A stretch of DNA of 63,937 bases, filler included, from Folioceros fuciformis (Eukaryota), in assembly GCA_049999805.1 (NCBI GenBank). It is 4 parts of 3 records of this genome, joined end to end, with 100 filler letters (N's around TTAATTAATTAA, not from the genome) between each part and the next. Parts side by side here need not be neighbours in the genome. Positions count along the whole stretch, not along the records: positions 1 to 29,184 come from JBNGIO010006328.1; 3 more parts are not named here. One strand, written 5' to 3'. Position numbers and translations under genes: made by a program. The notes beneath the pieces are model-generated. The model saw only the letters and a list, made by a program, of their open reading frames with translations, searched no databases and was not told the DNA's origin. Positions 14,270 through 28,913 of this stretch are shown here, in pieces; position 1 is the first letter of the stretch; every line of letters starts with the position of its first letter.

Positions 14270-14488
14270 CATAACCACCAGGCATTGGTCACCTTCCCCT
14301 CGGAGCCCAAACGCTTGAGAACCACCAGGCCNNNNNNNNNNTTGGTCACCTTCCCCTCGGAGCCCAAACGCTTGAGAACCACCAGGCCTTGGTCACCTTC
14401 CCCTCGGAGCCCAAACGCTTGAGAACCATCAGACCTTGGTCACCTTCCCCTCGGAGCCCAAACGCTTGAGAACCATCAGACCTTGGTC
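14270..14488. repeat. 47-bp tandem repeat, at least 4 copies, spanning a 10-N gap
   Basis: ttggtcaccttcccctcggagcccaaacgcttgagaaccaYcagRcc at 14285, 14342, 14389, 14436. Confidence 0.9.
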
Positions 14489-15041
14489 CAGCACAACGTG
14501 ATTTGAACAATGGGTTTGTCTCCTTCAAGGACATTGCTTCGTGACAATCCCCTGCTAATCCCGAATTTATGGTGTAGGTGTAGAGGAGAACATTATAGGT
14601 CCATCCCAAGCGCTCTTTTCCAGCACGGATGATTTGTCTTCAAGCAAAGAGAAGAGCTTAGAATGATTTCGTTTTGTTGTAGCTGTATGACAGATTTATG
14701 CAGCATTAACACTGAGCAAGCCTTTGTGGACGACTTACAGACCTCATCTTCAACGAAATTGAATGCATCGCAGCACCAAAATTGACCTTTATTTTTATTT
14801 ACACGCTCGTGAACAGGAACAGGCAAACCGCATCACAAGCCTGAGCACACGTGTGGACACGACGTCCGCTGCAGCAACAGGCTTGGAGGGAACGCCACAA
14901 AACATCACGATACCACATACTGGTGGAAATGAACAGGGCTTTCAACCGCACCAGCAGAGGAAGGTACAGACAACACATCAACAAGCCGAGTGGATCAAAG
15001 AGCTGAAGCCCGGCGACAAGGGCTTTGCAGACGGACGGCTT

Positions 15042-15768
15042 TCAGACGGTCTCGATCTTCCACAGCTGGTTGGGGCCCTTGTTCCACTTGTACAGAGTGA
15101 CGAGGGTGCCATCGCGCACGCCACCGTGCTCGTCATCGGCCTTCCAGGCGTCAAGGTTCTGGGACGTGTTTTTGGCGTTACGCACAGCTTTGTACCCACC
15201 GTCGATGTCGTCGCTCAGGCTCCAGAGCACGCTCTCGTCGAGCTCCTCGGGGTTATACTCCGTGAGACGGACCTGCTGCCCGTCAGATGTGGCGTGCTGC
15301 AGGGCCAGGCCCGTGGCCTTGCTCACCAGTGCGAAGGCGGGGTGCCCGGCGTCGTCCTGCACGCGATTGCCCCAAGACTCGTGGCGAATCCAAACCTGGC
15401 AAGACAAGCCGTCAGAATCCCGTTCCAAGAACTCCGAATTACACCATATCCGGCACGGACTCTACGTTGCCCGCAATACTGACCTGACTGTCGTCATATG
15501 ATTCTCCGGGCGCCAAGACGACCTGATTGTCGCGGACTGTGAGACTGAAGCCGGGGTTGGCCTGGCTGAAGACCTTCACGGCCTGCCGGGAGCGGCGTGT
15601 CTTGCGGCGGGCCTGGCTTTCCCCTGCCGCGGCTTCCCCCCCGTGAGCCTCCTCACGCTCCTCGTCGGAGGAGGAAGACGAGTGCCCGCCTCCCAGACCG
15701 AACAGGCCCCTGGAGCGCTGCTTCGGCTCCTGGTCCTCACCTTTCTCGCGGTGCAAGAACCCAGACAT
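15042..15768 (-). CDS. Euonymus-related lectin (EUL / OSR40-type ricin-B-like lectin); exons 15768-15484 and 15395-15042
   Basis: VKVFSQANPGFSLTVRDNQVVLAP...Q|VW...PAFALVSKATGLALQH...DESVLWS...NLDAW...GGVRDGT...WNKGPNQLWKI; 88-nt GT-AG phase-0 intron; 212 aa. Confidence 0.93.
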
Positions 15769-18546: not shown

Positions 18547-19922
18547 CAGTCCACCCTCCCTAAATGTTACCTGTAGGGCATTGGGTACCATTTAAGGAGG
18601 TCTAACATATAGAGAAAATATTTAAAATATTTAAAATATATTATATATTATATATAAACATTATATATTTAATAATATATAAATTTAGAATAAAAAATGA
18701 AAAAAAATGAACTTCAAAATGGCTTAAAAAAACGGGTTATTTCTACTTGTATCAAAGAGGACCTAACTTGCTTTAAAACTTCTTTCTCGATTTGTTGCAA
18801 ATTCTTAATTGTAGACATCATATCATTTGGTTGTTGCTCCAAAAACATGCGTATCACCCCAAGTGCATCTTCTACTTGAGCACGACCTAAAATAGGCCTT
18901 TCTTCATAATATTCTTCAAAAGAATTTTCAACGTCGACAACTTCATTTTCGGGTGGAGGTTGAGTAGAAGCCCATATATCATCTGCATCCGGAGTAGAAA
19001 AGATAGCACATGCATTTGTCACCTCATAATCAACAAATTCTTCTGCAGACATAGTAGGGGTCAATCCTGTTGTGTCAAGTCCTAAATCCCTCAGCTGATA
19101 AAGAAGCATTTCTATTTCTGCGTAATCTCTATTGTAAAATCTTCACGTGTTGCTTGATTGTCTTGTTGTTGCTCATCATCACTGTTAGCATTCCATGTCT
19201 CAAAACTAAGTTGATTCAAGTCTATATCCGACACGCTACCACTTGCTCTCTCCTACCATAACCCCGAGTGTTTCCAACAATTTCTAATGATTTTCCCTTT
19301 AACATCGATACGCCAAGCTTTTTCCAACATAGTCACAACATGATATACATCAATAAGAGGAGAATTACTATTTTGAATCTCTTGGATTTGATGCTGAACA
19401 AGCCTTTTCCTGTAATTGGCCTTAAAAGACTGTATAATGCCTGCATCCATGGGTTGGTAGCGAGCCGTAACATTAAGAGGAAAAAATTCAACTCTTGTAA
19501 TTTGAAGCTTACTTTGTGTCTCAGCTGATAGTTTATGAATAGGAGCATTATGCAAAAGAAGCAAGACATTAATACGGCCCCTAACTCTCATGTTCGCATC
19601 AAAAAAGAGAATAAATTGCTCAAATAAAGCCACCGACATCCAAGCATTTGAGTTTGCTGACCAATGAATACCCCAATTCTCCACTCGTCCAATGTTGCGA
19701 CTAGTAAAAGCTCTAGGCCTAAAGAATTTGTTGATCACAAAGGGTGGTAATTTATAACTACCATCCATATTGGTTGTCAAAGCAACATTTAGCCTTTCCT
19801 TTCGAGTTTTCTTCCCACTCAGCCTCTTCGATGCCAATGTTTTGTTCGGTTCCAATCTGCAGAACAACCCTCTTTCATCCATGTTAAAAATATCATGAGG
19901 CTCGTATTCGCATGATACTTTA
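18547..19922 (-). mobile_element. 5'-truncated pogo/Tigger-like (DDE_1) DNA transposon
   Basis: IFNMDERGLF, KERLNVALTTNMDGS, NAWMS, YQPMDAGIIQSFKANYR, IRNCWKHSG; acidic tail ending QVEITRFFKPF; candidate terminal TA|CAGTCCACCCTCCCTAAAT at 18545-18565. Confidence 0.85.
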
Positions 19923-20212
19923 GGCGACACCCGGTACAGCGGCAAGAAGGACCTGAGCACGAGCATCCTCCCCTTGCTCACCCGCTGCAGCATCTGCTTG
20001 GCAGTCTCATCCACCTTCACCCACTCCCGTACCTCCATCACCGTTCTCGTCTCCCACGTCGCTTCCCTCCCGTCTCGTGGTTCCTCCAATTCCCAATACA
20101 AACGCCGTCCAAAACAAACGCCGTCTAAATCAAAGCCCGTCTAAACGCCAGTGGGCAGTAAGAGGTATCAGTCCGACCTCCATTCGCGACGAATCTATTT
20201 CAATCCGAAGTT
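19923..20212 (-). pseudogene. Duplicated XRCC2 upstream region and first 38 codons, in frame with the transposase (ORF 20038-19253, 261 aa)
   Basis: Aligns by eye with ~18102-18340; MEVREWVKVDETAKQMLQRVSKGRMLVLRSFLPLYRVS versus MDVREWVKVDETAKQMLLRVTKGRMPVLGSFLPLYRVS. Confidence 0.9.
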
Positions 20213-21234
20213 TCGTGGCCCGAGCTAGCGCGGGGCTAGCACACGCCTACACGAGCCCTGTACGCCAAGTGTGCAGACAGATGCCCGCCACGCTGGCACG
20301 GAGCTTGTGCCAGGCCGGTGCGAGCACGCGCTCACCCGCTTGGGGCGCGTGCCGGCTCTTTCGTGGGCCCGATCTGGGCACGGACACTTGTCCTTGTCGC
20401 CACGGGGGCCCACAGTTTATCCGCACTCAGCTTCTCGGTACTGGTTTTAACAAGACCCAAAAATATGCGACTCTTTCACAAACCGAAAACGAGCCCCTTG
20501 ATTCTAATTACATCCGATCAAACTCTATAGTATGTATGATATGTGAAATTTGTGTCTGCTCCTATTAGACCTTACTATCATTTCTTCACGATTCACGACG
20601 CAGTGGCTAAGCTTGTCGTAATCTCATGTTGTGGGAGAGATCTCATAGTTGAACGTTTCCTTTTCTGCTGATAAGCTGGAGCATTAAGCCGGACTGCAGT
20701 CCTGTCCTCCACCCCAAGCAGAGAGGAAGCTCTGCGTAAGCCGGAGGGTGGATCCCTGTGCCCCTGGCGGATACAAGGGAGTGTAAATCGTTGAAGGAGG
20801 CGGGAATAACTGACGCAATAAACAGGACAACGTCACGTTAGCAGAGGCCGGGCCAGAGGAACGAGCCTGCCCGAGAAGGGAGCGGGCCACGGGAGTTCCG
20901 AGTGGATACGTACCTATAAGAGGGTGAGTGCAAACAGGAAGCCGCCACGAAGAAGCCCTTTGGGCGGGGGGCCTCATAAATCGGTGCTCTTTCCGGGATC
21001 TATTCGCGTTGCAAGAATGTGGCTGCTTGCAGCGCAGCGTGCGGATGCGCGGCTGCTGTAAGGTGTGCCACGCCCTGGCCCCGGCGTGGTGTGGTGTGGT
21101 GTGGTGTGCTGTGCAGAGAGATTTGCATGCGGGAGGAAGCGGGTGCGCAATGGCTGGCCGGGACGGCGGCCAATTCGGAGCATGCACCAATTCTGACCGG
21201 GACCTGTGTGGGTGGTGGCGCAGGAAGGAGAAAC

Positions 21235-22679
21235 ATGGGAAGCGGCCATGATCCGCACGAGGAGCAGCACCACGCCACGCACTACACCGAAGCCAGGCTG
21301 CACGGCGGCCCCGTGCATGCAATTCAAGATGAGCTGGTGAAGATGTATCCGCAGGGGGATCCGCGACGCTTGCTTACGGCGGAGGGGGATTCGGTGGTGT
21401 TGTCGAAGGCGTATGATCCGGCGCAGGTGCGTGTTGGTGTTTTTGTGTGCGTGTGTGAGTGAGGGAGATGCTTTTTGTTGTTGAGTTCTGGAGGAATGGC
21501 GAATTTGGTTTTGTTTTTTATTGCCTTTTCTTTGTGGGCGGAGATCTGTGTTCTTGGTGCGGCTGCGGCCGGGGTTTGGCTGAATCTGATCGCTGCATTC
21601 TGGATGGCCAGAAGTGGTATAAGGACGATGCGGGAGCCGGGAGAGTGGTGCAGGACGAGGAGGCGCAGGCCGGACTTGTGAAGAAAGATGCGGCGGCCTA
21701 CGACGGGCTTAGCTTCAAGCAGCACATGATTGCGGGATCTGTTGCTGGGATGGTGGAACACATGGCCATGTTCCCTATCGACACGATCAAGACACGGATG
21801 CAAGTCCTGTCTACTCCCGGTAATCAAACTCACACCAAAGTGTTGCGAGCTTTCTCTTCCATTATGAAGAGTGAGGGTCCGTTAGGGCTTTACCGAGGGA
21901 TCGGAGCCATGGGGTTAGGAGCAGGACCAGCGCATGCTGTTTATTTTTCGGTTTACGAGGTGTGCAAGGAGAAATTGGGAGGCAACAGGGAGGGCCACCA
22001 TCCGTTTGCCCATGCTGTGGCAGGGGCGTGTGCAACCGTGGCTAGTGATGCAGTTCTGACACCTATGGATGTTGTAAAGCAGAGGTTGCAGCTGAGGCAG
22101 AGTCCTTACAATGGTATAGTGCACTGCATCAGACAGATGCTACAGCAGGAAGGAGTTAAGGCCTTTTATGCATCTTACAAGACCACTGTCATGATGAACG
22201 TGCCGTTCACGGCTGTCCACTTTGCATCCTATGAAGCAGCCAAAAAGTACCTTGCTCAAACAGATGATGACGAAAACTTTTTTACACACCTCACTGCCGG
22301 GGGACTGGCGGGAGCCCTTGCAAGTGCTGTTACCACGCCCTTGGACGTGGCCAAGACACGATTGCAATGCCAGGTACGATTTGCTTACACTTCACATTTC
22401 GAAAGCGTGTCTTTGAGGTTGATATGCTTTGTGCTGTTTAGGTCTTCTTGTCTCACTTGTCAGGCTTGATCACAGGGTGTTTGTGGGGGAGAACGGTTTC
22501 ATAATACCTCAATCATGGCCGTGCTACGAAAGATCGTTTCACAGGAGGGAGCTGGGGCTCTTTGGAAGGGTGTGAGGCCGCGTGTGATGTTTCACACCCC
22601 CGCAGCAGCCATCTGTTGGACAACATATGAAGCCAGTAAGCGCTTTCTGCAGCGTTGGAACGATGACATGGAGAACTGA
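21235..22679 (+). CDS. Mitoferrin-type mitochondrial carrier (MIT/MRS3-4-like) with an N-terminal partial EUL-lectin segment; exons 21235-21426, 21612-22373, 22476-22679
   Basis: DGLSFKQHMIAGSVAGMVEHMAMFPIDTIKTRMQ, GAGPAHAVYFSVYE, TPMDVVKQRLQ, MNVPFTAVHF, TPLDVAKTRLQCQ|GVCG, PRVMFHTPAAAICWTTYE. Three PxD/ExxK signatures are present. The carrier call is firm; exon 1 is inferred. Confidence 0.88.
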
Positions 22680-23262
22680 AGTCATAGCTTCAAATGGAAT
22701 GTGCTTCATCAAGGCGGCTTACTACATCTCAACGTTAGAAGATTAAGACACCGGATTACGGTAAATGAAACTGGTTCAAGTACTAGCTCAGTACTTGATT
22801 CAGTTCTGTAACATAGTAGCAGAGGTAGCAGTAGAATTAAAATACAGGTCCGGTAAAAAGTTATTCACCTTCCAGCAATCCTTCGAGTCAAAAAATGTTG
22901 GGTAGTAATGAAAGAAAAATAAAATAGCTGGAAAAGTTGACAATGTTTAAAAGTATTACGAATTTCATAACTATTCTCACAAATTGTGGAAGAAAACTTT
23001 GAGCAAAATTATCGCCACACTTCTATGTACACGCCAACCAAATCTCTCCTCCCCCAATAATGAAAGGAATAAAGTTGCTGGAGCAGTTTACGTTCAAACG
23101 TATTCCGAGTTTCACAACTTTTCTCACAATTGTGACAGGAGACTTCTGGCAATCTGCCACATTTCCGTGTGTATAATAACCAAACCCCTCCTGCCCCAAG
23201 TACCTGGTGCACCTCAGCAGATACATACTTTCGCGACGTCAGTTACAACAACTGTCCAGGTT

Positions 23263-24810
23263 TCAATAGAAACCTACCGGAGCATCAAGGGAACTATTGA
23301 CAATAGCCAATGCCAAATACTGAGAACCCATACCAGTAGCTTTTGCCGACGAGTTCGGGCTGTCTTCTTCAAGCCAAGGTGCCTCACCATCTCCAACCAG
23401 CCTCCAGTACCCTAACTGCAGCGCCTCGGCTTGGTCCTCGTTCGCAGACTTCAGTAAGTGCTCCAATCTGGTGTTGATTCCCAACATTCCCAGAAGTCGC
23501 GACTGAGTCACTGGACCGAATGCAGTGGCACCTGTTTTGGACTCCTCCACCGTGTGCTTCAAGGCAGCAAAGTCGACATGGGCACTTAGATCAGCTGTGC
23601 CTGGATCTTGAAAAACATTCACAAACTGGTGCTTCTGGATAGCTTGCAGACTGTCTGAGATCAGATGATCTTTGCCATAGTCAATGATCAAAGCCCCACC
23701 CCCATCTTCTCCAACCCGCCGAGCAATATCACGGATCACCTTCAAGGATTGGGGACAAACTTCCACCTGCTCTACTTTCCCTTTCTCCTCTGCAGTTGCC
23801 CACTTCAACCGAGGACCTAAAAAGATATAGGAAGCAGGAGTGGGATCTGGTGAGAGCACAAACTGCAGTCCAAGTTCGGAGTCCTCTGAAACATCTACTA
23901 GTTTCTCCCTCCATCCTATGTCAGTCCTCTGGAATTGATGGATAGGCAATGCATCAAAAAACTCGTGGGCAATAATAATTGTAGGGACGCCCTTAGGAAC
24001 CTGCTCAAGTTCCACATACCATGATATAGGAGCGCCTGTAATTTCAGAAACAGCGTTCACACGACCTGATTTTTCAATACCAACTCCTTCATTTGTTGAC
24101 ATTGTTGCTCCAGGATCTGATTCGCAAACAGGACGCGCCAGTTTCTCTCCTGCTGGTCTGCACTTGAGAATCTTATATTGCCGTTTCCTCAATGCGGGGC
24201 TACACTCAACAAGATGAACAGAAAGTGCCTGTGAAAATGCTGTGAAGTTCTCAGTGCCTCGCAGCAGGTCTGCCATTAGGGTTCCCCGGCCTGGCCCTAG
24301 CTCGACAAGGTTAACCTGCTTAGGTGCTCCCATTTGTTGCCAGAGACAAGTGGTCCAAACTCCCACCAGTTCCCCAAACATCTGGCTGATCTCGGGTGAC
24401 GTAACGAAATCTCCTTCACTGCCAAAAACATCCCGGTGCATGTAAAACCCGGCAGTTGGATTGGTGAGAACCTCACCCATGTACTCCGCGACGGTGATAG
24501 GTCCCCCTCGGAACCTAATCAGACTTTTGATATGCCTTGCCAAACAAGTTTCTTCACTCTTACCTGCAGCTCCTTCACGATGCTCATGCTGTTTCAACCC
24601 TGACCGATCCACAGCAATCGTGGAGTCTGTCTCTAGTTCAGTACTAGACATCCTTGGGCCAGAAGCAATCCATGGAAAGAAGCGCACATAGTTGTAAACA
24701 GATGAAACACCATATCTAGCACCCCAGCCAACCCCCTCGCAACCTCCCACTCCCTTGCTCCATGCTGATGCAAAAGGAACGCGGGAACAGGCTCGTTGCA
24801 AGAATGCCAT
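23263..24810 (-). CDS. NDUFAF7: Mitochondrial protein arginine methyltransferase, complex I assembly factor (MidA family), intronless
   Basis: GPITVAEYMGEVLTNP, GDFVTSPEISQMFGE, LVELGPGRGTLMADLLR, IAHEFFDALP, ALIIDYG, PGTADLSAHVDF; first ATG at 24810. Confidence 0.95.
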   Translation of the reverse strand: MAFLQRACSRVPFASAWSKGVGGCEGVGWGARYGVSSVYNYVRFFPWIASGPRMSSTELETDSTIAVDRSGLKQHEHREGAAGKSEETCLARHIKSLIRFRGGPITVAEYMGEVLTNPTAGFYMHRDVFGSEGDFVTSPEISQMFGELVGVWTTCLWQQMGAPKQVNLVELGPGRGTLMADLLRGTENFTAFSQALSVHLVECSPALRKRQYKILKCRPAGEKLARPVCESDPGATMSTNEGVGIEKSGRVNAVSEITGAPISWYVELEQVPKGVPTIIIAHEFFDALPIHQFQRTDIGWREKLVDVSEDSELGLQFVLSPDPTPASYIFLGPRLKWATAEEKGKVEQVEVCPQSLKVIRDIARRVGEDGGGALIIDYGKDHLISDSLQAIQKHQFVNVFQDPGTADLSAHVDFAALKHTVEESKTGATAFGPVTQSRLLGMLGINTRLEHLLKSANEDQAEALQLGYWRLVGDGEAPWLEEDSPNSSAKATGMGSQYLALAIVNSSLDAPVGFY

Positions 24811-25052
24811 CGATCCCTCCAAGTAAATCCGGAGCCACAGAAATCATCAGCTGCTCTGGGCTGAAAGAACCACCAAGCTGAGCTACCACCCAAAGTCAGG
24901 CAAGGGGTACGAAAAAGCACCTCGCATAGCTCAAAACCCTACTCAGATGTCATTAGATAATTGAAAGAGTACAATCGGACCAACAAAAGCCGTAGATCCG
25001 GCAACAGCGGACAACCTCGTCTCCGTCTCCCACGACTCTCCAAGCACCAAAA

Positions 25053-26379: not shown

Positions 26380-28037
26380 GCCTACCTACTTTGGCACGTG
26401 CTACAGGGTTGAAGACGGCTCCGTTTTCATCTTTTTTGTAACGGGGAGACGCCAGAGTGAGTTCTGGCTACGGAGGATCACTTAGGGCTGGCCAGGACTG
26501 GGTTAATAGCAGGGCTGGTGTACAAGACTTTGTAATTGAGCAGTTTATTAACTGTAAGACCACTATAGGGCAGTGATAGTTGGGTTGGACAGCTTGTGGG
26601 TAGCAGCTTCTCGGAATGCCGTGCTTGGATGTCATCCGAAAGGGGGGACATTTTCTTTCCTCCATTTGAAGACGTACGGGGATGAGAGGAGCAAGAGCAG
26701 CTGCCACGGAGGATCCTGGTGAAGCCATGGGATGATGGGGTGTGAATTGGTTCCAGTCCATGCGCGGGCGAAATTTTTCAGACCAAAATTCGCGGCTGAG
26801 CGGTACTTTTCAGATCCAAATGCCTTCAATTTGAGACCTTTTTGCTACAAATCTCTTCGTTCCACCTCTGATCTTAGCCGAGCTTCTCCATCGTGTACAA
26901 AAGAGACTAGAAGAGTTCTTTTTCATTATTTTTACAAGGGGAATCATGGGGCATACACCGTAAGCGGCTGCGACCTAAACCAATTATTTGTCTTATTTAT
27001 TAACCTACATTAATAGCCAAATTAAGTACCAAGCGCGCCCTGGTAGGGGACCATCCACGTCCGTAGCTCGCGAGAAAAGAAAAAAACAAACCAAAATAAC
27101 ATGAAGGAACTCACAAATGAAAACAAAAGGAAACATCTACGTTAAAATAAATTCTGCCTAGTTACCTGTGGGAGCCATGCCCAAAAATCCACTAGCAATA
27201 ATTTCCTTGCATAGAGTGGAAGAAGCAGAAAACTTTCATTAGAGTTCGTTAAGGACATATGTCTACCTAGCTTCTTGTTAGAGCCATTCCCAAAAATCCA
27301 CATGCAGTAATTTCCTTGTGAGAGTACACAACGAAGAAAACATCTATTAGAGTCCACTAAGGACAGATTTCCACCTTGAGACTTGGTACTTAACAACTTA
27401 GACCATGGTATACCTAGCTAGCTACTTGCTCCAAAGGGCATCCTTCCATTTAGGCATCTCATCTAACTACTGAGCTGAGCACAAGATGTTAAATCCCAAG
27501 GTTCTTATAAACTTCTAGAAAAATTCTATGAGAGTCCACCGAGAGCGGTTCTATCATGGGACTTTGTACTTAGCAGCTTTTACCATGGTGTACCTGACTA
27601 CTTGCTGCAGAGGGCATCCTTTCCTTCAGGCATCTCATCTAAGTGATCTAAGAGCAAGATTCTTAATTCCAGAGCTTTTATAAACTTATGACCATTTGGC
27701 CTGCCATTTCGAGCAGCATGGTCATGAAAACGTGAGGACAATAAGTCTTCTTCCTGATTGTGCACAAAGGAGGCAGAAAAGTATGATCCTATCATGTACA
27801 AAAGCAGACAGTCTTGCACAAAAAGGCATGCAACCAAGGATCTAATTTGAAAGCTTTATACGAGTGGTAGCAAGACTTAGCTTAGAGCTCAAGAGATACT
27901 TGCTTTAGGCAGTTACTTTAGAAGTAATATAAGCCTTCATATAAAAGGGCCCTAGGCTGAAAGATCATAGCCTCATCATTTTGGAGCCTAGTGGTACGAT
28001 CAAGGATGCAAGTGAAGTATAAACGACATTTCAGAAT

Positions 28038-28913
28038 ATGCCTGGTATCATTCCAGATTGGCTTGCACCATTGGTGAGTAACATATCACAATATTTTGTT
28101 CCTTCTGAATCATCAAGCTCAGTGAGAAAAAAGCCGATTCTTTGTGGTCGCCATGATAATGACTCTCATGTGAAGTCTAATGGCAAAGACAGATGTCTTC
28201 AAGAATTTTGTATTACTTGTCATGAGGGACCACTTTGCAGCATATGTGTGAAGGAGAATCATAAAGATCATGAAGTACTTCACCTTCGATCAGCTTGTAG
28301 GAAGGCAGCAATTGATTATAAGGAGAATGCAAAAGTTCTAGATACTCAACTTATTGATTTTTCACTCATCGACACTGTTACTTGTAATGGTCTTGAAGTA
28401 TATTTTGTGGTCACCAATAATCAAGATGCTCACCCTAAAGGCAAGCCTCACTTATGCAAATTTTGCATGAGAACACTACCAAAGCAATATATCGATCAGC
28501 CAGCTTGGTTTTGTTCAATTTATTGCAAAGCTCAAGCTATTGCAAGTGGAGAGCCTCAATATGCAAATATGACATTGGTAAAAATAATTCCTACTATATC
28601 TGAGACGAAAGATGATAATAATAATCTACGCACAACTTCTTTATCAAGAGAATCACCTAAGCTTAGAACATCCACAACAAAAGATCATGGTCATAATTGC
28701 ATGATTGATGTATTACCGCAATCTGCTCCTACATCCATGACAAAAGGTGATCATATGTGCACACATTTATCACCACGATCACCTTCAATCTCAATGGCAG
28801 AGCCATCTACAAGTGAAAGGGTTGCAATTGAAAATAGATCTTCTAACTCAAAAAGAAGGAAATGTAAACATCCTAATCGAGCAGCAGGAGTTGGGATCCA
28901 ACCATATTATTGA
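28038..28913 (+). CDS. Divergent intronless PLATZ-family zinc-dependent DNA-binding protein
   Basis: PDWLAPLV; C-x2-H...FCITC...LCSIC...H-x2-H; C-x2-C-x-R-x-L...FCSIYCK; C-terminal KRRKCKHPNRA, like the PLATZ RRKGxPxRA motif. Confidence 0.8.
   Translation: MPGIIPDWLAPLVSNISQYFVPSESSSSVRKKPILCGRHDNDSHVKSNGKDRCLQEFCITCHEGPLCSICVKENHKDHEVLHLRSACRKAAIDYKENAKVLDTQLIDFSLIDTVTCNGLEVYFVVTNNQDAHPKGKPHLCKFCMRTLPKQYIDQPAWFCSIYCKAQAIASGEPQYANMTLVKIIPTISETKDDNNNLRTTSLSRESPKLRTSTTKDHGHNCMIDVLPQSAPTSMTKGDHMCTHLSPRSPSISMAEPSTSERVAIENRSSNSKRRKCKHPNRAAGVGIQPYY

Follow-up and report, generated by a model that had tools for sequence, protein, structure and literature searches.

A likely fusion between the 5' part of an EUL lectin gene and a mitoferrin-type carrier in Folioceros fuciformis

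Can a mitochondrial iron carrier begin with a piece of a lectin? The question is raised by a plus-strand gene of Folioceros fuciformis (NCBI GenBank assembly GCA_049999805.1) at positions 21235 to 22679 of a 63,937-nucleotide stretch of DNA. This whole stretch, which consists of four parts of three records joined by filler letters, is the window referred to below; its positions 1 to 29,184, which include the gene, come from record JBNGIO010006328.1. An original prediction, made from the sequence before any database search, described the gene as a chimera in which a His-rich, truncated EUL lectin domain is fused in frame to a mitoferrin iron carrier. The evidence gathered here agrees with that description: the protein starts with a piece of EUL domain that covers positions 2 to 53 of a 153-position domain profile and continues in frame into an intact mitoferrin-type carrier. 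We consider it likely that this is a real, expressed fusion, found in a narrow lineage, of the 5' half of an EUL gene with a complete mitoferrin-type SLC25 carrier.

The coding sequence begins with the ATG at 21235 and is spread over three exons. Exon 1 (21235-21426, 64 codons) ends at a donor GT at 21427 and is joined in phase 0 to exon 2 (21612-22373, 254 codons) across a 185-nt GT..AG intron (21427-21611, acceptor AG at 21610-21611). A second GT..AG intron of 102 nt (22374-22475) separates exon 2 from the last coding exon (22476-22679), which closes with a TGA at 22677-22679. Codons 1 to 31 (21235-21327) form a His-rich, acidic tail with 7 His in 31 residues and a pI of 6.1. Codons 32 to 64 (21328-21426) hold the EUL-derived strands beta1 to beta3 and stop at the Q of the first QxW (profile positions 2 to 36), while codons 65 to 89 (21612-21686) supply the xW, strand beta4 (WYKDD), and a remainder of beta5 in decayed form, residues 65 to 82 corresponding to profile positions 37 to 53. 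A short linker (21687-21701), which neither the EUL profile nor Mito_carr matches, comes next; the fusion junction falls within exon 2. Repeats 1 and 2 of the carrier and the first half of repeat 3 follow at 21702-22373, and exon 3 encodes the second half of repeat 3. From the acceptor to the carrier there is no alternative in-frame Met, as had been predicted; the first Met of exon 2 sits inside the first carrier helix.

To what extent does the head descend from an EUL lectin? We addressed this with a profile built only from other organisms, so that the EUL gene of the window itself could not make the comparison circular. Exon 2 of that gene was used as a phmmer query against 1.84 billion representative sequences; the best 150 of the 330 matches at E ≤ 0.001 were used, and 104 domains in 86 proteins, each spanning the whole domain, entered the 153-position profile. 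Positions 2 to 53 matched residues 32 to 82 of the spliced head with 24.0 bits (E = 1.3e-9, Z = 1). None of 5,000 shuffled heads reached 10 bits (maximum 9.7), and no score above 0.1 bits was seen among the best 120 other mitoferrins, compared with 203.1 bits for the EUL protein of the window. The profile also weakly matched solved ricin-B/CBM13 beta-trefoils (best E = 5e-9). A direct comparison of residues 1 to 100 of the head with the neighboring EUL protein gave 31.2 bits in blastp (E = 1.2e-6, 34% identity over 47 residues) and a Smith-Waterman score of 76, which 0 of 2,000 shuffles reached (31.1 ± 5.1, maximum 58). Even at E values up to 10, Pfam left exon 1 and the opening 35 residues of exon 2 without a family, and the best score from the ESM Atlas with exon 1 was 0.83, below the useful range. 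The predicted resemblance of the N terminus to EUL was thus recovered by a profile made of sequences from other organisms.

The gene structure tells the same story. Intron 1 lies at profile position 36/37, in phase 0, inside the first QxW (Q/xW), in both the fusion gene and the neighboring EUL gene, which bears out the shared position that had been noted. According to the available text of Fouquaert et al. 2009 (PMC2788552), the first intron of the EUL domain, about 35 to 40 residues in, has a conserved position in plants ranging from dicots to Selaginella and Physcomitrella. Because its position agrees with that conserved intron, intron 1 of the fusion gene can be identified as the EUL intron. 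The EUL match itself depends on the splice, since the exon pieces, scored separately as six-frame open reading frames, reach just 5.8 and 3.4 bits. A match that is present only in the spliced product therefore provides independent support for the splice.

Further support came from public sequencing runs, in which we looked up the stretch 21100-22800. One run (X1) contained 60% of its words and others 8 to 9%. Contigs from X1, X2, X3, and X7 were aligned to 19500-23500 at 85% likeness; X2, X3, and X7 represent three related organisms from three studies, with one contig each. Relative to the window, these three differ by about 6% in exon 2 (44 to 46 of 762 positions) and about 8% in exon 1 (14 to 15 of 176). 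All three begin in the 5' untranslated region (UTR), between 20956 and 21006, cross the joints 21426/21612 and 22373/22476 exactly at the GT..AG borders, and run on into the 3' region. Intron 1 is absent from the contigs of all three relatives, and intron 2 is absent from those of X1, X2, X3, and X7. We conclude that the contigs of X2, X3, and X7 derive from spliced RNA because they lack three genomic stretches, two of which have clean GT..AG ends. The relatives also carry an 18-nt deletion at 21274, within the His-rich tail, which leaves the reading frame intact. The contig of X1 shows 0 differences from the window in 1,780 nt and has intron 2 spliced out. A search of related transcriptomes for the same fusion had been suggested as a check, and its exact joints were found here in contigs from three related organisms.

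The remainder of the protein is a carrier without visible defects. Pfam PF00153 (Mito_carr) matches exon 2 in three stretches (E = 5.6e-65), and the rest of repeat 3 is matched in exon 3 (E = 5.3e-13). When exon 2 served as the query of a word-indexed search, 2,841 of 5,356 candidate proteins had E ≤ 0.001, and we used the best 120 of the 2,841. The named matches among these 120 are land-plant mitoferrins or SLC25A28/37 (58 to 73% identity); the exact protein of the fusion gene was not found among them. The best match (P0004, 77% identity) is an unnamed open reading frame cut at its first Met. A FastTree phylogeny of 121 sequences groups P0004 with the window protein (support 99), and the two lie among the basal land-plant mitoferrins. 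One residue is shared by at least 95% of the best 120 homologs at 98 columns, and the carrier keeps 97 of them, the exception being a D-to-H change at residue 235. By sequence, then, the carrier is complete and of the mitoferrin type. Since it is intact, it most likely serves as an iron importer of the inner mitochondrial membrane and would have kept its ordinary activity. No second carrier gene was found within the window.

What sets this carrier apart lies ahead of the DGLxF motif. There are 94 residues before the motif, compared with a median of 33 and a maximum of 106 among the 105 of the 120 homologs that have it. The starts of 16 homologs that we examined were of the common MAE..ELRER kind or of a short, unrelated type. 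In P0004, the 19 residues before YDGLSF are collinear with window residues 77 to 90, with a score of 28 that 1 of 5,000 shuffles reaches and that compares with 24 for the best of 84 other mitoferrins. This similarity hints that the fusion may predate the split from P0004.

Which EUL gene could have donated the head? The gene 5.5 kb away had been singled out because the head aligns with its domain. It is a complete EUL gene of two exons and 212 amino acids on the minus strand (15042-15768; exons 15768-15484 and 15395-15042), arranged head to head with the fusion gene. It has a phase-0 intron after the Q and before the xW, and RicinB_lectin_2 matches its exon 2 (E = 9.6e-8). We compared the fused head with the first 65 residues of 105 EUL domains by local score. 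The neighbor ranked ninth (72, against a median of 54), and the best score (124) belonged to P0162, a complete 285-amino-acid EUL protein from the transcriptome of the hornwort Nothoceros aenigmaticus, which is 46% identical to the neighbor. P0162 and residues 30 to 80 of the head are identical at 29 of 53 positions (55%; 53.5 bits, E = 2e-14), and the two have the unusual variants VVLSKA and WYKDD in common. Together with the place of the carrier in the tree, this closeness to a Nothoceros protein suggests that the window is of hornwort origin. With P0162 so much closer, we rejected the neighboring gene as donor or nearest relative: its alignment with the head is genuine, but closer relatives exist. 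The intron position is silent on this point because the feature is shared across the EUL family. The 5' regions of the two genes have no DNA similarity, the best blastn match being 17 nt long (E = 0.71). A word-indexed search with P0162 residues 125 to 192 returned P0162 itself as the sole match among 20 candidates. In the neighboring gene, the remainder of the domain (15042-15395, minus strand) lies in a single exon without the second domain intron; S3-type EUL genes conserve that intron, according to the available text of PMC2788552.

Between the two genes lies an open reading frame for a 295-amino-acid DDE_1 transposase of the pogo/Tc1 type (19256-20140, minus strand; Pfam E = 3.2e-33), and part of the 5.5-kb spacing is therefore a later insertion. 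All four runs contain a contig piece about 90% identical to 19924-20066 with loose ends on both sides, and this element is probably multicopy and transcribed in the relatives. The original prediction also supposed that the fusion brought the carrier a lectin-derived promoter, a conjecture that drew no support from these data. The window has 7 copies of the abscisic acid-responsive element (ABRE)-like motif ACGTGKC, where 7.7 would be expected, with no occurrence upstream of the fusion gene; one site lies about 420 nt upstream of the neighboring EUL gene.

Based on these comparisons, we propose that the captured piece took in a His-rich N-terminal region and some 33 residues from the beginning of the EUL domain, along with the conserved intron and about 18 to 25 further codons. 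The donor would have been an EUL gene of the P0162 (hornwort Nothoceros) type rather than the present neighbor. The most economical origin would be a deletion or partial duplication that linked such a gene to a carrier gene downstream of it. The usual MAE..ELRER-type head of the carrier would have been replaced in the process, with the junction now inside exon 2. SLC25 carriers have their N terminus facing the intermembrane space, and the head is expected to do the same. As a consequence, the gene may have acquired an altered 5' region and a new head with no new sugar-binding function; any effect of the head would more likely fall on expression, import, or turnover, or the head may simply be tolerated, than concern sugar recognition.

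What then of the His-rich tail, which had been read as a possibly metal-binding gain for an iron carrier? Under such a reading, the head would be a metal-binding or metal-sensing module whose tail, in the intermembrane space, captures Fe2+ or other metals or gates the carrier. There are parallels in the EF-hand heads that regulate Ca-dependent SLC25 carriers and in the His-rich loops that act in other metal transporters. The appeal of this reading lies in the 7 His among the first 31 residues and in the location of the head on an iron carrier, where no fewer than three related organisms have retained it. Although the relatives lose one His through the 18-nt deletion, they gain one through G25H, and the His-richness persists. 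However, His-rich regions are common in free EUL proteins. Across 62 such proteins in which 25 or more residues precede the domain, His makes up a median of 8.5% of the N-terminal region, 26 have 10% or more, and the highest value is 33%. The trait is thus older than the fusion and can be explained without iron. Moreover, close relatives differ by an indel in the tail, which matches no metal-binding family in Pfam. A comparison of tail residues 1 to 31 with the N-terminal region of P0162 was not significant (215 of 2,000 shuffles reach the score). Because His-rich N-terminal regions are common among EUL proteins, the tail was, most simply, probably inherited with the lectin exon. The abundance of His in the tail was therefore described correctly, while its interpretation as a gain for iron was not supported. 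Metal binding is possible, with its main argument gone, and we regard the metal module as doubtful.

A related and more specific version can be imagined. The head could be a selected module of the intermembrane space in which the His tail senses or hands over metal and the lobe folds together with other copies or with a partner, given that a single beta-trefoil lobe would be unable to close the barrel alone. We consider this version unlikely.

Returning to the fusion as a lectin fragment on an otherwise ordinary carrier, we considered how much of the lectin fold was kept. P0162 was modeled in AlphaFold2 along with 40 other EUL sequences; its domain has pLDDT values above 90 and shows 12 strands. 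The fused piece corresponds to P0162 residues 132 to 184, which form the first four strands (lobe 1). Codons 32 to 64 align with residues 132 to 168, where the modeled strands are 135-141, 147-152, and 155-160, and beta4 of the head aligns with strand 170-173. Residues 83 to 89, assigned to the FALVNK strand of P0162 by eye, are perhaps a decayed fifth. Instead of a complete three-lobe beta-trefoil of ~150 residues, the head thus covers profile positions 2 to 53 of 153. The available text of PMC4030858 places the sugar-binding site of EUL at the C-terminal end, at domain residues of about 112 to 149, with validation by mutagenesis in a rice protein. This part is absent from the fused head. Because the sugar-binding end is missing and lobe 1 alone is left, we rejected the idea that the head acts as a lectin.

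The pattern of change among relatives suggests that the lobe has not drifted freely. Our listing of differences is partial: 64 fall outside it, and for the exon 1 piece it includes 10 to 11 of the 14 to 15 differences. Within the EUL-like core (codons 32 to 78), the listed differences comprise 5 that are silent and 1 replacement (M37I), compared with 2 silent and 4 replacements in codons 79 to 92; in the tail, G25H and the six-codon deletion are listed. These small, partial counts suggest purifying selection on the core, with a linker that would be free to change.

Several points weigh against the interpretation of the gene as an expressed fusion. The public runs were taken to be RNA by guess, and their RNA nature is read from the absence of introns. 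The contig of X1, identical in sequence to the window, begins at 21619, 7 nt into exon 2, and leaves exon 1 uncovered; this is a blank that favors neither side, and the first splice has therefore been demonstrated in relatives and not in this organism. Accordingly, the predicted joint 21426/21612 stands as far as the GT and AG, the phase 0 junction, and the contigs of three relatives are concerned, but it has no cover in the organism with identical sequence. The 5:1 ratio of silent to replacement changes comes from a partial listing and is a hint only. In addition, six-frame searches of the window found neither a further piece of EUL nor a relic of the canonical mitoferrin head, the best hits for the latter having E values of 0.22 and 0.99 at 8.2-8.5 kb and 50.6-50.7 kb.

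The uncovered exon also lends itself to another explanation, namely, that the functional protein of this organism does without exon 1, which would be a decaying piece of EUL pseudogene included in some transcripts only or a presequence-like segment that is removed after import. In plant ADP/ATP carriers, for example, targeting does not require the N-terminal extension of about 60 residues, according to the available text of PMC3355725, and the linker evolves fast, with 4 of the 6 listed differences in codons 79 to 92 replacing a residue. Yet the stretch from the acceptor to the first helix lacks an in-frame Met, and the frame is open in all three relatives, in-frame indel included. Moreover, the listed changes in the core are mainly silent (5 of 6). 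Finally, with a pI of 5.4 and 17 Asp/Glu against 10 Lys/Arg, the acidic head is, in composition, unlike a matrix presequence. We consider an exon 1 outside the functional protein very unlikely. Chance or convergent EUL likeness in a low-complexity extension, which could appeal to the blank Pfam results in exon 1 and the linker and to exon pieces that are not significant alone, is excluded for practical purposes by the profile match and its shuffles, by the match to P0162 with its rare shared motif variants, and by the identical position and phase of the intron.

The 5' end of the fusion gene can be followed beyond the start codon. The contigs of X2, X3, and X7 begin at 20956, 20973, and 21006, respectively, and run to 21063, defining a 5' UTR exon at 20956-21062, the start of which is a lower bound for that of the transcript. 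They then jump from 21063 to 21230, with 5 letters in between. This jump fits splice sites at 21063 (AAG/GT) and 21223 (CAG/G), given three substitutions after the acceptor. The stretch 21063-21223 is therefore a probable GT..AG intron of 161 nt in the 5' UTR; the alternative would be a 166-nt indel between species. It contains a (GTGTG)n run at about 21088-21115. The 5' UTR exon has an upstream open reading frame of 14 codons (ATG at 21017, TAA at 21059-21061, plus strand), and a second upstream ATG at 21045 would, without the probable UTR intron, open an out-of-frame reading across the main start codon. Translational control through these upstream elements is possible. At the other end of the gene, the contigs of the relatives diverge from the window at 22663, 4 to 5 codons before the stop, continue with 236 other letters, and rejoin it at 22747. 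Thus, the extreme C terminus and the beginning of the 3' UTR (22664-22746, plus strand) differ between species.

Three other features of the window deserve mention. An open reading frame of 526 amino acids (23266-24843, minus strand) matches Methyltransf_28 (E = 2e-66), an NDUFAF7-like methyltransferase family, and its 3' end points toward that of the carrier gene. The contig of X1 continues from the carrier into this gene, and because it spans both, their 3' ends probably overlap or nearly touch. Downstream of the neighboring EUL gene, at 14300-14500, tandem units of about 48 nt (ggttctcaagcgtttgggctccgaggggaaggtgaccaagg...) lie beside an assembly gap (N run at 14332-14341). An open reading frame at 28023-28910 (plus strand) has a PLATZ transcription-factor domain with an E value of 1.5e-5, just above the Pfam cutoff.

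The fusion would offer a stepwise view of how a protein can gain a new head, with the first exon of a lectin, an intron, and part of the second exon captured whole and the conserved intron position serving as a fossil marker of where the head came from. If the head is functional, it would represent a new way to regulate or feed a mitochondrial iron importer, and if the module reading is true, an iron carrier would be controlled by a recycled lectin domain, a type of carrier regulation not yet described. If the head is not functional, the gene would provide a clean natural example of a fold fragment tolerated on an essential membrane protein. The original prediction knew of no fusion of this kind, and our literature searches agree: we found no description of an EUL-carrier fusion or of such a mitoferrin head, the supplementary tables, such as the lectin architectures of Supplementary Table 3 of PMC6362431, being outside our reach. 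Likewise, we found no protein with this head in protein collections, either among the best 120 mitoferrins or in a word-indexed search with exon 1, where proteins of 35 to 112 amino acids gave no candidate.

How does the fusion protein compare with known systems? It resembles plant mitoferrins (the family of SLC25A28/37 and yeast Mrs3/Mrs4) in its three Mito_carr repeats, with 66 to 77% identity to mitoferrins. It differs in the head, which has a median of 33 residues and is of the MAE..ELRER type in plant mitoferrins, whereas the 94 residues of the fusion protein are EUL derived. Like aralar/citrin and the SCaMC/APC carriers, it has a sizeable N-terminal module on a mitochondrial carrier, expected in the intermembrane space. 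In those carriers the module has EF-hands, whereas the fusion head contains no EF-hand or other Pfam family at E values up to 10, and offers a fold fragment instead. With EUL lectins such as ArathEULS3, the fusion has in common a first exon that encodes an N-terminal region plus 35 to 40 domain residues, the intron, lobe 1, and a His-rich start. EUL lectins have 12 strands and a C-terminal sugar site; the fusion keeps 4 strands, perhaps 5, and no site. According to the available text of PMC6362431, no other recognized domain is ever combined with EUL, and the present gene would be an exception to that statement, though with a fragment of the domain only. Plant ADP/ATP carriers likewise have a long, nonconserved N-terminal extension (PMC3355725, in the part available). 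That extension does not come from another known domain, whereas the head of the fusion protein can be traced to a lectin gene.

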